Part shown: one piece after another, positions 9,068 to 41,605 of the stretch
Numbering within the stretch: the first letter of the stretch is position 1
How the letters are laid out: every line of letters starts with the position of its first letter
Assembly (NCBI RefSeq): GCF_035084215.1
Contig: NC_090341.1
Span: 16,926,001 to 16,990,000, forward strand
Length of the DNA: 64,000 nt
Direction of reading: 5' to 3'
Origin: Heptranchias perlo
Lineage: Eukaryota
The notes under the pieces: model-generated
Seen by the model: the letters and a program-made list of their open reading frames with translations, nothing else
Told to the model about the DNA's origin: nothing
Database searches by the model: none
Translations under genes and position numbers: made by a program

Positions 9068-12025
9068 CTAGTCCCAATTGCCTGCACTTGGCCCATATCC
9101 CTCTATATCCATCTTACCCATGTAACTGTCCAAATGCTTTTTAAAAGACAAAATTGTACCCGCCTCTACTACTGCCTCTGGCAGCTCGTTCCAGACACTC
9201 ACCACCCTTTGAGTGAAAAAATTGCCCCTCTGGACCCTTTTGTATCTCTCCCCTCTCACCTTAAATCTATGCCCCCTCGTTATAGACTCCCCTACCTTTG
9301 GGAAAAGATTTTGACTATCGACCTTATCTATGCCCCTCATTATTTTATAGACTTCGATAAGATCACCCCTTAACCTCCTACTCTCCAGGGAAAAAAGTCC
9401 CAGTCTGTCTAACCTCTCCCTGTAAGTCAAACCATCAAGTCCCGGTAGCATACCAGTAAATCTTTTCTGCACTCTTTCTAGTTTAATAATATCCTTTCTA
9501 TAATAGGGTGACCAGAACTGTACACAGTACTCCAAGTGTGGCCTCACGAATGCCCTGTACAACTTCAACAAGACATCCCAACTCCTGCATTCAATGTTCT
9601 GACCAATGAAACCAAGCATGCCGAATGCCTTCTTCACCACCCTATCCACCTGTGACTCCACTTTCAAGGAGCTATGAATCTGTACTCCTAGATCTCTTTG
9701 TTCTATAACTCTCCCCAACGCCCTACCATTAACGGAGTAGGTCCTGGCCCGATTCGATCTACCAAAATGCATCACCTCACATTTATCTAAATTAAACTCC
9801 ATCTGCCATTCATCGGCCCACTGGCCCAATTGATCAAGATCCCGTTGCAATCCCAGATAACCTTCTTCACTGTCCACAATGCCACCAATCTTTGTGTCAT
9901 CTGCAAACTTACTAACCATGCCTCCTAAATTCTCATCCAAATCATTAATATAAATAACAAATAACAGCGGACCCAGCACCGATCCCTGAGGCACACCGCT
10001 GGACACAGGCATCCAGTTTGAAAAACAACCCTCTACAACCACCCTCTGTCTTCTGTCGTCAAGCCAATTTTGTATCCAATTGGCTACCTCACCTTGGATC
10101 CCATGAGATTTAACCTTATGTAACAACCTACCATGCGGTACCTTGTCGAATGCTTTGCTGAAGTCCATGTAGACCACGTCTACTGCACAGCCCTCATCTA
10201 TCTTCTTGGTTACCCCTTCAAAAAACTCAATCAAATTCGTGAGACATGATTTTCCTCTCACAAAACCATGCTGACTGTTCCTAATTAGTCCCTGCCTCTC
10301 CAAATGCCTGTAGATCCTGTCCCTCAGAATACCCTCTAACAACTTACCCACTACACATGTCAGGCTCACTGGTCTGTAGTTCCCAGACTTTTCCCTGCCG
10401 CCCTTCTTAAACAAAGGCACAACATTTGCTACCCTCCAATCTTCAGGCACCTCACCTGTAGCGGTGGATGATTCAAATATCTCTGCTAGGGGACCCGCAA
10501 TTTCCTCCCTAACCTCCCATAACGTCCTGGGATACATTTCATCAGGTCCCGGAGATTTATCTACCTTGATGCACGTTAAGACTTCCAGCACCTCCCTCTC
10601 TGTAATATGTACACTCCTCAAGACATCACTATTTATTTCCCCAAGTTCCCTAACACCCATGCCTTTCTCAACCGTAAATACCGATGTGAAATATTCATTC
10701 AGGATCTCACCCATTTCTTGTGGTTCCGCACATAGATGACCTTGTTGATCCTTAAGAGGCCCTACTCTCTCCCTAGTTACCCTTTTGCCCTTTATGTATT
10801 TGTAGAAGCTCTTTGGATTCACCTTTGCCTGATCTGCCAAAGCAATCTCATATCCCCTTTTTGCCCTCCTGATTTCTCTCTTAACTCTACTCCGGCAATC
10901 TCTATACTCTTCAAGGGATCCACTTGATCCCAGCTGCCTATGCATGTCATATGCCTCCTTCTTCTTTTTGACCAGTGCCTCAATCTCCCGAGTCATCCAA
11001 GGTTCCCTACTTCTACCAGCCTTGCCCTTCACTTTATAAGGAATGTGCTTACCCTGAACCCTGGTTAACACACTTTTGAAAGCCTCCCACTTACCAGACG
11101 TCCCTTTGCCTGCCAACAGACTCTCCCAATCAACTTCTGAAAGTTCCTGTCTAATACCATCAAAATTGGCCTTTCCCCAATTTAGAATTTTAACTTTTGG
11201 GCCAGACCTATCCTTCTCCATAGCTATCTTAAAACTAATGGAATTATGATCACTTGTCCCAAAGTGATCCCTCACCAACACTTCTGTCACCTGCCCTTCC
11301 TTATTTCCCAAGAGGAGGTCAAGTTTTGCCCCCTCTCTCGTCGGGCCATCCACATACTGAATGAGAAATTCCTCCTGAATACACTCAACAAATTTCTCTC
11401 CATCCAAGCCCCTAATGCTATGGCTGTCCCAGTCAATGTTGGGAAAGTTAAAGTCCCCTACTATTACCACCCTATTTTTCTTGCAGCTGTCTGTAATCTC
11501 CTTACATATTTGCTCCTCAATTTCCCGTTGACTATTTGGGGGTCTGTAGTACAATCCTATCAAAGTGATCTCTCCCTTCTTATTTTTCAGTTCTACCCAT
11601 ATAGACTCAGTGGGCGAACCCTCGGATATATCCCCTCTCACTACTGCCGTGATGTTCTCCCTAATCAAGAACGCAACTCCCCCTCCTCTCTTACCTCCTG
11701 CTCTATCTTTCCTATAGCATCTGTACCCTGGAACATTGAGCTGCCAGTCCTGCCCCTCCCTTAGCCATGTTTCAGTAACAGCTATAACATCCCAGTCCCA
11801 TGTACCCATCCATGCCCTGAGTTCATCTGCCTTGCCCATCAGACTTCTTGCATTGAAATAAATGCAGTTTAATCTAGACTTCCCTTGGTCTTTGCCCTGC
11901 TTTCTCAGACCATCTGTCCGGTCATGTTCTGTACACTCTCCCTTACTGCCTTTTGTTTCTGTCACCATTTTATTTCCCACTGACTTCCTGCATCGGTTCC
12001 CATCCCCCTGCCACATTAGTTTAAA
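9068..12025 (-). CDS. CR1 ORF2: APE endonuclease plus reverse transcriptase (true start uncertain; frame is open back to 12172)
   Basis: YFNARSL, VTETWL, GDFNFP, SDHN (endonuclease); NYRPVSLT, DFSKAFDKVPH, GVPQGSVLGP, FADD (RT). No internal stops. Confidence 0.95.
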   Translation of the reverse strand, partial: FKLMWQGDGNRCRKSVGNKMVTETKGSKGECTEHDRTDGLRKQGKDQGKSRLNCIYFNARSLMGKADELRAWMGTWDWDVIAVTETWLREGQDWQLNVPGYRCYRKDRAGGKRGGGVAFLIRENITAVVRGDISEGSPTESIWVELKNKKGEITLIGLYYRPPNSQREIEEQICKEITDSCKKNRVVIVGDFNFPNIDWDSHSIRGLDGEKFVECIQEEFLIQYVDGPTREGAKLDLLLGNKEGQVTEVLVRDHFGTSDHNSISFKIAMEKDRSGPKVKILNWGKANFDGIRQELSEVDWESLLAGKGTSGKWEAFKSVLTRVQGKHIPYKVKGKAGRSREPWMTREIEALVKKKKEAYDMHRQLGSSGSLEEYRDCRSRVKREIRRAKRGYEIALADQAKVNPKSFYKYIKGKRVTRERVGPLKDQQGHLCAEPQEMGEILNEYFTSVFTVEKGMGVRELGEINSDVLRSVHITEREVLEVLTCIKVDKSPGPDEMYPRTLWEVREEIAGPLAEIFESSTATGEVPEDWRVANVVPLFKKGGREKSGNYRPVSLTCVVGKLLEGILRDRIYRHLERQGLIRNSQHGFVRGKSCLTNLIEFFEGVTKKIDEGCAVDVVYMDFSKAFDKVPHGRLLHKVKSHGIQGEVANWIQNWLDDRRQRVVVEGCFSNWMPVSSGVPQGSVLGPLLFVIYINDLDENLGGMVSKFADDTKIGGIVDSEEGYLGLQRDLDQLGQWADEWQMEFNLDKCEVMHFGRSNRARTYSVNGRALGRVIEQRDLGVQIHSSLKVESQVDRVVKKAFGMLGFIGQNIECRSWDVLLKLYRAFVRPHLEYCVQFWSPYYRKDIIKLERVQKRFTGMLPGLDGLTYRERLDRLGLFSLESRRLRGDLIEVYKIMRGIDKVDSQNLFPKVGESITRGHRFKVRGERYKRVQRGNFFTQRVVSVWNELPEAVVEAGTILSFKKHLDSYMGKMDIEGYGPSAGNWD

Positions 12026-12963
12026 CCCTCCCCAACAGCACTGGCAAACACTCCCCCTCGGACATTGGTTCCAGTCCCGCCCAGATGCAGACCGTCCAAT
12101 TTGTACTGGTCCCACCTCCCCCAGAACCGGTTCCAATGGCCCAGGAATTTGAATCCCTCCCTCTTGCACCATCTCTCAAGCCACGTATTCATCTTAGCTA
12201 TCCTGTCATTCCTACTCTGACTTGCCCGTGGCACTGGTAGCAATCCTGAGATTACTACCTTTGAGGTCCTACTTTTTAGTTTAACTCCTAACTCCCTAAA
12301 TTCAGCTTGTAGGACCTCATCCTGTTTTTTACCTATATCGTTGGTGCCTATATGCACCACGACAACTGGCTGTTCACCCTCCCCCTCCAGAATGTCCTGC
12401 AGCCGCTCCGAGACATCCTTGACCCTTGCACCAGGGAGGCAACATACCATCCTGGAGTCTCTGTTGCGTCCGCAGAAACGCCTGTCTATTCCCCTTACAA
12501 TCGAGTCCCCTATCACTATAACTCTGCCACTCTTTTTCCTGCCCTCCTGTGCAGCAGAGCCAGCCACGGTGCCATGAACCTGGCCACTGCCACCTTCCCG
12601 TGGTGAGCCATCTCCCCCAACAGTATCCAAAACGGTATACCTGTTTTGGAGGGAGATGACCGCAGGGGACCCCTGCACTGCCTTCCTACTCTTCCTCTGT
12701 CTGTTGGTCACCCATTCACTATCTCCCTCAGTAATTTTTATCTGCGGTGTGACCAACTCACTGAACGTGCTATCCACGACTTTCTCAGCATCGCGGATGC
12801 TCCAAAGTGAGTCCATCCGCAGCTCCAGAGCCGTCAAGCGGTCAAACAATAGCTGCAGCTGGACACACTTCCCGCAGGTGAAGGAATCAGGGATACAGGA
12901 AGGAGCCCTGAATTCCCACATCTCACAAGAGGAACATGACACGGCTCTGGGATCTCCTGCCAT
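12016..12963 (-). CDS. CR1 ORF1, 315 aa: zinc finger/leucine zipper plus SGNH/GDSL esterase-like domain
   Basis: CSSC...CGKC, then heptad leucines. IGDSIVR, HIGTNDI and DGLHL blocks are typical of CR1 ORF1 esterase. Confidence 0.93.
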   Translation of the reverse strand: MAGDPRAVSCSSCEMWEFRAPSCIPDSFTCGKCVQLQLLFDRLTALELRMDSLWSIRDAEKVVDSTFSELVTPQIKITEGDSEWVTNRQRKSRKAVQGSPAVISLQNRYTVLDTVGGDGSPREGGSGQVHGTVAGSAAQEGRKKSGRVIVIGDSIVRGIDRRFCGRNRDSRMVCCLPGARVKDVSERLQDILEGEGEQPVVVVHIGTNDIGKKQDEVLQAEFRELGVKLKSRTSKVVISGLLPVPRASQSRNDRIAKMNTWLERWCKREGFKFLGHWNRFWGRWDQYKLDGLHLGGTGTNVRGGVFASAVGEGLN

Positions 12964-13343: not shown

Positions 13344-16105
13344 CTAATTGCCCTCGAGAAGGTGGTGGTGAGCCGCCTTCTTGAACCGCTGCAGTCTGTG
13401 TGGTGACGGTTCTCCCACAGTGCTGTTAGGAAGGGAGTTCCAGGATTTTGACCCAGCGACAATGAAGGAACGGCGATATATTTCCAAGTCGGGATGGTGT
13501 ATGACTTGGAGGGGAACGTGCAGGTGCTGTTGTTCCCATGCGCCTGCTGCCCTTGTCCTTCTAGGTGGTAGAGGTCGCGGGTTTGGGAGGTGCTGTCGAA
13601 GAAGCCTTGGCGAGTTGCTGCAGTGCATCCTGTGGATGGTGCACACTGCAGCCACAGTGTGCCGGTGGTGAAGGGAGTGAATGTTTAGGGTGGTGGATGG
13701 GGTGCCAATCAAGCAGGCTGCTTTATCTTGGATGGTGTCGAGCTTCTTGAGTGTTGTTGGAGCTGCACTCATCCAGGCAAGTGGACAGTATTCCATCACA
13801 CTCCTGACTTGTGCCTTGTAGATGGTGGAAAGGCTTTGGGGAGTCAGGAGGTGAGTCACTCGCCGCAGAATACCCAGCCTCTGACCTGGTATTGTAGCCA
13901 CAGTATTTATGTGGCTGGTCCAGTTAAGTTTCTGGTCAATGGTGACCCCCAGGATGTTGATGGTGGGGGATTCGGCGATGGTAATGCCGTTGAATGTCAA
14001 GGGGAGGTGGTTAGACTCTCTCTTGTTGGAGATGGTCATTGCCTGGCACTTATCTGGCGCGAATGTTACTTGCCACTTATGAGCCCAAGCCTGGATGTTG
14101 TCCAGGTCTTGCTGCATGCGGGCTCGGACTGCTTCATTATCTGAGGGGTTGCGAATGGAACTGAACACTGTGCAGTCATCAGCGAACATCCCCATTTCTG
14201 ACCTTATGGTGGAGGGAAGGTCATTGATGAAGCAGCTGAAGATGGTTGGGCCAAGGACACTGCCCTGAGGAACTCCTGCAGCAATGCCCTGGGGCTGAGA
14301 TGATTGGCCTCCAACAACCACTACCATCTTCCTTTGTGCCAGGTATGACTCCAGCCACTGGAGAGTTTTCCCCCTGATTCCCATTGACTTCAATTTTACT
14401 AGGGCTCCTTGATGCCACACTCGGTCAAATGCTGCCTTGATGTCAAGGGCAGTCACTCTCACCTCACCTCTGGAATTCAGCTCTTTTGTCCATGTTTGGA
14501 CCAAGGCTGTAATGAGGTCTGGAGCCGAGTGGTCCTGGCGGAACCCAAACTGAGCATCGGTGAGCAGGTTATTGGTGAGTAAGTGCCGCTTGATAGCACT
14601 GTCGACGACACCTTCCATCACTTTGCTGATGATTGAGAATAGACTGATGGGGCGGTAATTGGCCGGATTGGATTTGTCCTTTTTGTGGACAGGACATACC
14701 TGGGCAATTTTCCACATTGTCGGGTAGATGCCAGTGTTGTAGCTGCACTGGAACAGCTTGGCTTGAGGCGCAGCTAGTTCTGGAGCACAAGTCTTCAGCA
14801 CTACAGCTGGGATGTTGTCGGGGCCCATAGCCTTTGCTGTATCCGGTGCACTCAGCCGTTTCTTGATATCACGCGGAGTGAATCGAATTGGCCGAAGACT
14901 GGCTTCTGTGATGGTGGGGATATCGGGAGGAGGCCGAGATGGATCATCCACTCGGCACTTCTGGCTGAAGATGGTTGCAAACGCTTCAGCCTTGTCTTTT
15001 GCACTCACGTGCTGGACTCCGCCATCATTGAGAATGGGGATGTTTGCAGAGCCTCCTCCTCCCGTTAGTTGTTTAATTGTCCACCACCATTCACGACTGG
15101 ATGTGGCAGGACTGCAGAGCTTTGATCTGATCCGTTGGTTGTGGAATCGCTTAGCTCTGTCTATAGCATGTTGCTTCCGCTGTTTAACATGCATGTAGTC
15201 CTGTGTTGTAGCTTCACCAGGTTGGCACCTCATTTTTAGGTACGCCTGGTGCTGCTCCTGGCATGCTCTTCTGCACTCCTCATTGAACCAGGGTTGATCC
15301 CCTGGCTTGTTGGTAATGGTAGAGTGAGGAATATGCCAGGCCATGAGGTTACAGATTGTGCTGGAATACAATTCTGCTGCTGCTGATGGCCCACAGCGCC
15401 TCATGGATGCCCAGTTTTGAGCTGCTGGATCCATTCTGAATCTATCCCATTTAGCATGGTGGTAGTGCCACACAACACGTTGGATGGTGTCCTCAGTGCG
15501 AAGACGGGACTTGATCTCCACGAGGACTGTGCGGTGGTCACTCCTACCAATACTGCCATGGACAGATGCATTTGCGACAGGTAGATTGGTGAGGACGAGG
15601 TCAAGTAAGTTTTTCCCTCGTGTTGGTTCGCTCACCACCTGCCGCAGGCCCACTCTGGCAGCTATGTCCTTCAGGACTCGGGCAGCTCGGTCAGTAGTGG
15701 TGCTACCAAGCCACTCTTGGTGATGGACATTGAAGTCCCCCACCCAGAGTACATTCTGTGCCCTTGCTACCCTCAGTGCTTCCTCCAAGCGGTGCTCAAC
15801 ATGGAGGAGGACTGATTCATCAGCTGAGGGAGGACGGTAGGTGGTAATCAGCAGGAGGTTTCCTTGCCCATGTTTGACCTGATGCCATGAGATTTCATGG
15901 GGTCCAGAGTCAATGTTGAGGACTCCCAGGGCACTCCCTCCTGACTGTATATCACTGTACCGCCACCTCTGGGGATGGAAGAGTCTGGGACGTTGGCTGA
16001 AAGATATGATTCTGTAAGTTTGGCTATGTCAGGCTGTTACTTGACTGGTCTGTGGGACAGCTCGCCCAATTTTGGCACAAGTCCCCAGATGTTAGTAAGG
16101 AGGAC
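13344..16105 (-). pseudogene. APE endonuclease-reverse transcriptase ORF; the 814 aa portion 13344-15788 is open, the N-terminus has a stop, a probable deletion and a frameshift
   Basis: TNIWGL, QPDI..TES, TYRPPS, GDFNVHH, SDH; NYRPISL, QFGFR, DIKAAFDRVWH, GVPQGSVLGP, FADD. Confidence 0.9.
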
Positions 16106-40645: not shown

Positions 40646-41365
40646 CTGGAAAGTATAAAAACTATGAACAAGTTAACATTTAATCATACAATGTCTTGCA
40701 TTTAAAATTTACAAATATGTAAAATCAATACACCTTTAATGAGATTTACACTAGTTACTTCAGAAGCATTAACACTTGAGGGTTTTCTTGGCGCAGAAGG
40801 GATGCTATTGCCTGGCACAGAAATTAAAATTATTTATAAATGAGTTTGTATTCTAAATACAGCTCTTATTCTTCATTTATCACTTAAGAATGTTTCAACT
40901 CGGTTAACTTATAAATACATTCCAAATTGTGGTGACATCTTTTAGTGACTGCTTTGATCATTTTATCTTCCATATAAGCTTGAATTTATGATCTTGAACA
41001 CAAATGGAAATATAAGAATAACACAGACACGTTAATCAACAATATTGGAAGTTTCAGCATTACAAATTTACAGAAACTTATTGTGAAACCTGCTTATAAA
41101 AAACTCCTGATTACCACAATAATGTACTAATAAGAGAATTTATCAAGCTAAGAGCTGACAGTTGCACTCATATGTGAAAATTTTCCCTATAATGGACTCT
41201 CATTCTAAGGATTCACTGTACATGGCCAAAAATTATATTGCAATCTTTTACAAAGTAATTATTTTTGTAATTATTTCCTAGTCTACTCCCTTCCCCAAAG
41301 TTAGCCCTTACATATCTGTACCATGTCCTTCAGTTGGGAGAGTGGGGTGGTTCTGCCCCATTGTT

Positions 41366-41589
41366 TTTTTTTTTTTTTGACACTCTGGGGTGCCTTATTG
41401 CCTTACAGATTCATTCCAGATTCCTTGCAGTGACATTACATCAAGCCAAAGCTCTACAAGCCAAAGCTCTACACTCTGCCCGAGGGGATTTCTCCCTGAC
41501 TGCATCCCCCCGGCATACAATGGCAGGAAGGCTCCAAATGGTTGCCTTCCCCCACTTGACCACTTGATCTTAGCCAAAAGGCCGAGAAG
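41366..41589 (-). mobile_element. U2 snRNA-headed poly(A) retroposon (SINEU-like or U2 chimera)
   Basis: U2 nt 5-33 at the 5' end, about 180 nt body, poly(A) tail, and 17 bp TSD GGTTCTGCCCCATTGTT (41349-41365 and 41589-41605). Confidence 0.88.
41561..41589 (-). ncRNA. U2 snRNA 5' fragment (not a functional gene)
   Basis: CTTCTCGGCCTTTTGGCTAAGATCAAGTG matches vertebrate U2 nt 5-33 as recalled. Confidence 0.9.
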
Positions 41590-41605
41590 GTTCTGCCCCA
41601 TTGTT

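Follow-up and report, generated by a model that had tools for sequence, protein, structure and literature searches.

The U2-headed insertion in the window

The DNA analysed, a window of 64,000 nt from Heptranchias perlo, carries a short retroposed element on its minus strand. The element and its flanking repeats consist of the following features:

41589-41605 (minus): TSD copy at the 5' side of the element, 17 bp; base 41589 doubles as U2 nt 5
41561-41589 (minus): U2 snRNA head, nt 5-33, matching RF00004 and identical to U2 1-33 of the array copies
41553-41560 (minus): fixed junction scar GTCAAGTG, in which U2 27-33 is repeated; 893 exact junctions genome-wide
41379-41555 (minus): body, derived from a Keno-like Tx1 LINE, of which it covers the last ORF2 codons and ~190 nt from the start of the 3' UTR (74-86% local identity)
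41471-41555 (minus): two predicted hairpins common to the Keno 3' region (fold z -2.53)
41442-41471 (minus): exact tandem duplication of a 15-mer (units 41442-41456 and 41457-41471), marking a young subfamily
41364-41378 (minus): poly(A) of 15 A, the final two also in the TSD
41349-41365 (minus): TSD copy at the 3' side of the element

The initial annotation, made from the letters alone, had described a minus-strand head of U2 nt 5-33, a partial repeat of the U2 end, a non-U2 body with a tandem duplication, and a poly(A). All of these were recovered. Against Rfam family RF00004 the head scored 29.6 bits (E 4.4e-4); being only part of U2, it falls short of the gathering score of 46. At the gathering threshold, Rfam gave no match in the whole window. 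The scar GTCAAGTG (41560-41553) repeats U2 27-33, and in the alignment its final GTG is shared with the beginning of the Keno-derived part. The duplication is an exact 15-mer pair (41442-41471) and the tail holds 15 A (41378-41364). We take the head to comprise stem I and the U6-pairing region, and to stop where the branch-point recognition sequence starts. The exact 17-bp TSD needs a qualification. Within the 64-kb window the 17-mer has only two occurrences, one at each end of the element, but two A are common to the TSD and the tail and one C is common to the TSD and U2 nt 5, so that its length is 14-17 bp.

The whole element (~215 nt plus tail) is non-coding. Its body is 100% identical to the commonest allele of the U2 gene arrays described below, which is in line with a recent insertion, as the annotation had proposed. 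No joint of an empty allele at this site was found in two DNA runs from one sample, in which the coverage of the right flank has a hole.

The two hairpins at the 5' end of the body folded better than most shuffled sequences (z -2.53, 1 of 200 shuffles as good), with z of -3.65 for an old variant and -1.56 for Keno. The fold of the whole element was no better than that of shuffles (z -0.76), and the 3' half gave z +1.13. Covariation of the hairpins was unsupported (term +0.3, two-sided change in 1 of 10 pairs) in a weak test, most rows being dead LINE copies. As a guess, the predicted hairpins are candidates for an ORF2 recognition signal.

Copies in U2 gene arrays

The annotation had suggested counting the body and its U2 junction genome-wide. 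A pattern count found 893 exact matches to the head-body junction, and the 3' end of the short element had 923 matches at ≤1 mismatch. The body as a genome query returned 521 candidates, and the 40 that were scored were all 99-100% identical. The annotated alternative of a single-copy junction with a body from an unrelated mRNA is thereby excluded, since the junction is multicopy and the body Keno-derived. Of 30 returned loci, 23 lay in tandem arrays and ran from U2 1-33 through scar, body and poly(A) into U2 from nt 38 on. The array copies, situated between U2 1-33 and U2 38-191, occupy the Keno site.

Genome-wide, 649 junctions of poly(A) to canonical U2 (Keno included) and 259 of poly(A) to variant U2 were counted. 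Uninterrupted genes numbered 222 for canonical U2, 92 for U2-like genes with A38T (pattern count) and 341 for U2-like genes within one mismatch of the A29C/A38T pattern. About three quarters of the canonical U2 junctions are therefore interrupted (649 versus 222), a proportion that holds for canonical U2 only; for a gene family essential to the spliceosome, this is a heavy load. The DNA contig depth of 7586 for the body against 10.3 for the flank lies in the same range as the assembly copy count; this ratio is rough, as the DNA runs may come from the very sample that was assembled, and haplotypes may be counted twice through unplaced contigs. In 775 kb picked around matches, and hence non-random, 294 U2 units were read: 214 with the short element, 72 called uninterrupted (one of them actually with a truncated Keno) and 8 others. 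Keno-type junctions numbered 7 among these 294 units, versus the 214 with the short element. Among full-length array bodies, 140 of 208 were identical. Contigs C1-C8, about one third of the genome, hold 18 dispersed copies, which extrapolates to about 50 genome-wide versus ~840 in U2 genes.

Neighbouring units of array type A often have tails of equal length, in blocks, and the 259 variant-junction units lie mostly within homogeneous runs of 3.5 kb. Unequal crossover has multiplied occupied units, as the runs of identical units show.

A separate region (C12:65.7-70.3 Mb; L271-L276, L317-L328) holds more than 400 uninterrupted U2-like genes with A38T, many of them also with A29C. Both positions lie at the edge of the branch-point recognition region, and the genes are 89-91% identical to canonical U2. 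In eight type-F A38T units that were checked, the match to U2 spans nt 1-93 only. The U2-like genes of this region as a whole could be variant snRNAs or pseudogenes. The idea that A38T/A29C genes are insertion-resistant alleles found no support as it stood, given the 259 variant junctions and the entry of Keno into such genes too, though few separate events are visible. Elsewhere on the same contig (L147 and L148, C12:64.50-64.52 Mb), array units with repeated fragments of U2 87-191 are amplified in tandem and carry a stub of ~150 nt of the Keno 5' end behind U2 1-34.

The Keno-like partner and the origin of the body

The body was compared with Tx1 and Keno 3' UTRs, as the annotation had recommended, and local matches of 74-86% identity were obtained to the ORF2 end and 3' UTR start of a Keno-like LINE of Tx1 type. 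It ends ~150 nt before that LINE's own tail and is without the final AATAAA segment. The short 3' end may plausibly be due to a cryptic poly(A) signal, AATAAG, which stands 17 nt ahead of the tail, although the oldest variants have AATGAG there.

On C9, a full-length Keno-like copy of 5,458 bp interrupts a U2 gene, with U2 1-34 on one side and U2 38-191 on the other. It encodes an ORF1 of 521 aa and an ORF2 of 1135 aa (domains: zf-CCHC; EEP, RVT_1, zf-RVT). All four array copies read end to end measured 5,458-5,459 bp at the same site, and three copies on C12 are 99.5-99.6% identical to the C9 copy with both ORFs open. With its 3' flank TCTGTTCTTATCAGTTTAAT, 37 nt into U2, an APE endonuclease, an RT and two ORFs, the element resembles Keno, an APE-type, U2-specific member of the Tx1 clade whose published insertion site is likewise 37 nt into U2 with the 3' flank TCTGTTCTTATCAG (PMC4640811; PMC6136364). 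The name Keno-like, chosen from site and domains, is to be read in this sense. The ORF2 protein matches with the highest identity were short pieces in Heterodontus (78% over 8% of the query) and Scyliorhinus (70% over 12%), compatible with the shark that the annotation had thought probable, and the Takifugu RT BAD04856.1 shared 39% identity over 98%; the returned homologues bore no family names.

The U2-headed 5' junction of the Keno-like element occurs 83 times. All ten dispersed copies with a U2 head that were read start inside U2 1-15 and have no array flank, and four have clear TSDs. Its tail has 1096 exact matches, mostly dispersed; in a sample of 30, two were followed by U2, most tails had 8-11 A, and seven copies had TSDs of 7-16 bp, like the dispersed short copies. 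The Keno-like family is thus only loosely site-specific.

Two dispersed truncated Keno copies, L131 (C2:148.81 Mb) and L132 (C8:80.11 Mb), carry U2 38-191, a spacer of ~100 nt to an AATAAA and a new tail. Because they include U2 38-191 and the spacer, array-resident Keno copies must have been transcribed through and retrotransposed. In two further dispersed Keno tails (L278, L293), U2 sequence from nt 38 on comes next. The genome also holds another Tx1 family, which is older (L135, L136 and L137 on C1, C4 and C8); it is 76-90% identical to the Keno-like element and has longer U2 heads, from nt 3/5 to nt 52/57.

Evidence for re-insertion into U2 genes

Array types A-E differ by 7-13% in the 250 bp upstream, and every type has empty and occupied units. 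One identical allele is present in 119 copies spread over all five types, and 8 of 39 alleles cross types. Within type A, 54 units with the commonest flank haplotype are occupied and 35 are empty. Around identical inserts, the bases typical of each type at -1/-2 and in U2 38-191 are kept, so that any conversion tract would need to start inside U2 1-33 and end at the tail.

Marks of target-primed reverse transcription (TPRT) are visible in place: one copy is truncated at its 5' end, one insertion consists of A14 alone, and in two neighbouring units the tail joins U2 at nt 31. Three 3' junctions were found, each after an A of U2 (38, 35 and 30), a pattern to be expected of priming by poly(A). 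In A38T genes, Keno (two copies, L329 and L330) and the short element (L331) both join at nt 36. In type E, C29 is present in 13 of 13 distinct empty genes read and in 0 of 13 occupied ones, as expected if the head of the RNA replaced that of the target; head replacement has also been put forward as a model for R2 RNAs that include 28S sequence from upstream (PMC3774820). Since type E runs are homogeneous, the signals of head overwriting and of the shifted junction may stem from one or few events. Tails inside U2 genes hold 9-92 A and those at dispersed sites mostly 8-15 A, for both the short element and Keno.

Spread of a single old, truncated Keno insertion by unequal crossover and gene conversion only, in which the element never homes and the dispersed copies are passive retrocopies, would account for the equal-tail blocks of type A and the long homogeneous runs of type E. 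It also has a precedent in a stick insect, where degenerate and truncated R2 was amplified by unequal recombination (PMC4370867). We nevertheless regard it as unlikely: type-specific bases persist on both sides of identical inserts, the three different junctions each lie at an A of U2 and one is common to Keno, a copy was 5'-truncated in place, and 115 type-D units have 37 distinct tail lengths. Unequal crossover is at work, and probably re-insertion alongside it.

Dispersed copies

Thirty dispersed copies of the short element were read. A U2 head is present in 28, of which none extends upstream of U2 +1; 12 of the dispersed copies start at U2 nt 1-3. The scar junction is common to 26 of the 28 headed copies, the other two (L104 and L107) having different junctions. 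A clear exact TSD of 8-17 bp borders 13 of the 30, and for 3 of the 30 a Keno tail is no more than 10 nt away. A probable RNA run covers one copy (L048/L110, C6:1.948 Mb) at low depth along with the flank upstream of it, so this copy would lie inside a host transcript. The dispersed subfamilies are graded by age, from a single to a duplicated 15-mer, at 85-100% identity. Older variants, with one 15-mer, are nearer to Keno than young ones; the lineage has therefore persisted while its source copies turned over.

This age gradation is what a conventional dispersed SINEU family would display, with its own internal promoter or dispersed masters and with the copies in U2 genes as a side effect. Such a family is very improbable here, given ~50 dispersed copies against ~840 in U2 genes, the presence of all young allele types in the arrays, heads that never pass U2 +1 (0 of 28), and snRNA genes for which no internal promoter is known according to Kojima 2015 (PMC4494074). 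Least credible are independent template-switch chimeras of free U2 snRNA and LINE RNA formed during reverse transcription: chimeras of this kind are known (PMC4494074) and may fit L104 and L107, but only these, being contradicted by the one junction, 8-nt scar and one 3' end of 26 of the 28 headed copies and by the finding of no LINE above ~86% identity to the body among 40 of 521 and 40 of 1065 candidates scored or among the loci read.

Transcription

Two runs, X5 and X6, were classed as RNA by a guess of the tool and come from one sample; in them the element reached depths of 697 and 3164 and its flanks (unique sequence) 0. One 239-nt contig of these probable RNA runs covers head to poly(A), the contigs showing neither start nor strand. 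Oligo-dT capture of A-rich DNA may lie behind these depths; contamination by genomic DNA at a coverage of several-fold would be hard to reconcile with contig sets of only ~119 Mb.

Promoters of snRNA genes lie upstream of the gene and no internal promoter is known for them; how snRNA-headed SINEs are transcribed was left open by Kojima 2015 (PMC4494074). The annotation had called for a source locus with a U2 PSE upstream. Hundreds of source loci exist, and in types A-E the alignment placed a candidate PSE at about -62 of U2, which matches the consensus only in part. The U2 promoter of the host likely drives transcription of the short element.

Proposed mode of propagation

Together, these observations make it probable (about 0.8) that the window copy is an off-target daughter of a non-autonomous, U2-homing partner of Keno, likely transcribed from the U2 promoter and re-inserted by Keno protein. 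The element arose from the 3' region of a Keno-family LINE, linked to U2 nt 33 through a fixed scar of 8 nt and shortened at its 3' end. Pol II would start at U2 +1 and produce an RNA of head, body and poly(A). Keno ORF2 would nick a U2 gene and the poly(A) of this RNA would prime at an A of the target, judging from the junctions A38, A35 in A38T genes and, once, A30. The cDNA of the U2 head would then anneal to U2 1-33 of the target, restoring the same 5' junction and placing the new copy behind a fresh promoter. Occupied units are multiplied by unequal crossover, of which the runs of identical units are the trace. Off-target events, that in the window among them, yield copies with TSDs of 8-17 bp and short tails, which have no external promoter and would be dead ends.

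Mobilisation by Tx1-clade machinery has strong indirect support from the shared site, the shared shifted junction and the adjacency to Keno tails. The proposal as a whole has to contend, among other points, with the absence of the last 150 nt of Keno from the element and with the large share of DNA-level duplication in its copy number. Of the two origins that the annotation had offered, the one in which a U2 gene was retrocopied together with a truncated U2-targeting element inside it agrees with the hundreds of source loci and the Keno-like Tx1 3' end of the body. The annotation overlooked that the short element is itself an apparently active site-specific family that enters U2 genes. The other origin, an independent SINEU family, is appropriate in form only, as the dispersed copies are a small minority and have no U2 promoter.

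More tentatively, and with the odds for the whole somewhat short of even, the element may be a SINE-like parasite that solves the problem of the missing promoter by homing: its head is its target, and each correct insertion would rebuild a source gene behind the U2 promoter. It would out-compete its autonomous partner, reside in about three quarters of the canonical U2 genes, give rise to abundant U2-headed RNA with the U6-pairing arm and without branch-point recognition, and offer a living example of how a SINEU is born. 

In the main reading, the element likely relies on the U2 promoter and on enzymes supplied by a larger, Keno-like retrotransposon that targets U2, and this would explain both the transcription and the renewal of promoter-less snRNA-headed SINEs. 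The source copies, the partner LINE, the target and the dispersed daughters occur together here and are young, so that the question of SINEU transcription becomes directly testable. The element also represents a natural minimal RNA (~215 nt) that is apparently inserted precisely in trans by an APE-type site-specific retrotransposon, and is as such relevant to targeted-insertion tools.

Comparison with known systems

SINEU-1, -2 and -3 were described from crocodilians by Kojima 2015 and attributed to Tx1 machinery (PMC4494074). Like these, the short element is smaller than 500 bp and non-coding (215 nt plus tail), has a U2-derived head of ~33 nt (a head from U1 or U2 being characteristic of SINEU), a 3' poly(A) and TSDs, and inserts in tandem to Tx1 copies. 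It behaves as a transposing unit and not as a sum of chimeras, 26 of 28 headed copies having a common junction and 140 of 208 array bodies being identical. In contrast to SINEU, which is dispersed or inserted in Mariner-N4_AMi, it prefers the U2 gene, and most copies lie in U2 arrays. For SINEU-1 no LINE with the same 3' end was reported (PMC4494074), whereas the body found here is traceable to a resident Keno-like LINE; an origin independent of the crocodilian SINEU is therefore likely. Where SINEU transcription was left open in that paper, the source copies here sit inside U2 genes, behind the U2 promoter.

The partner differs from the short element in size (5.46 kb) and in its APE, RT and gag-like ORF1, the short element being a non-coding derivative of 215 nt. 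This relationship resembles that of the R2 SIDEs and R2/R1 hybrid SIDEs of Drosophila rDNA, which are described as non-autonomous and site-specific, need the partner's proteins as well as transcription together with the host RNA gene, and are homogeneous although ~25% diverged from the partner (PMC3414825). As in these, the short element is a non-autonomous occupant of its partner's site in a multicopy RNA gene. Its heads start at or after U2 +1, and the probable RNA contigs, startless and strandless, cover head and body. R2 SIDEs are rare and have a 5' HDV-like ribozyme (PMC3414825); the body here contains no Keno 5' UTR and no Rfam ribozyme was matched at E up to 10. Unlike R2 SIDEs, the short element outnumbers its partner in the arrays, uses the U2 5' end as a head and sheds dispersed SINE-like copies. 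R2 itself, with upstream 28S sequence in its RNA, resides in rDNA and depends on cleavage by a ribozyme and on an endonuclease of the RLE type (PMC3774820), whereas an APE element in Pol II snRNA genes is concerned here. As to classical SINEs with an internal Pol III promoter in a tRNA, 7SL or 5S head, the head is U2 and no such family was matched.

Utopia inserts at the same U2 site, and in Nasonia disrupted U2 genes outnumber intact ones; it is RLE-type and autonomous, and the main text of its description does not mention a non-autonomous form (PMC4640811). No non-autonomous Keno and no shark SINEU was found in the literature searched; Repbase, subscription papers and supplements, outside this scope, may hold one.

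Other LINE frames in the window

Two further regions of the window contain open LINE frames on the minus strand. At 9068-12963, a GDSL-esterase ORF1 and an EEP/RT ORF2 of 1034 aa are open, an architecture that we take to be CR1-like. A second open RT frame, of 814 aa, lies at 13344-15788.
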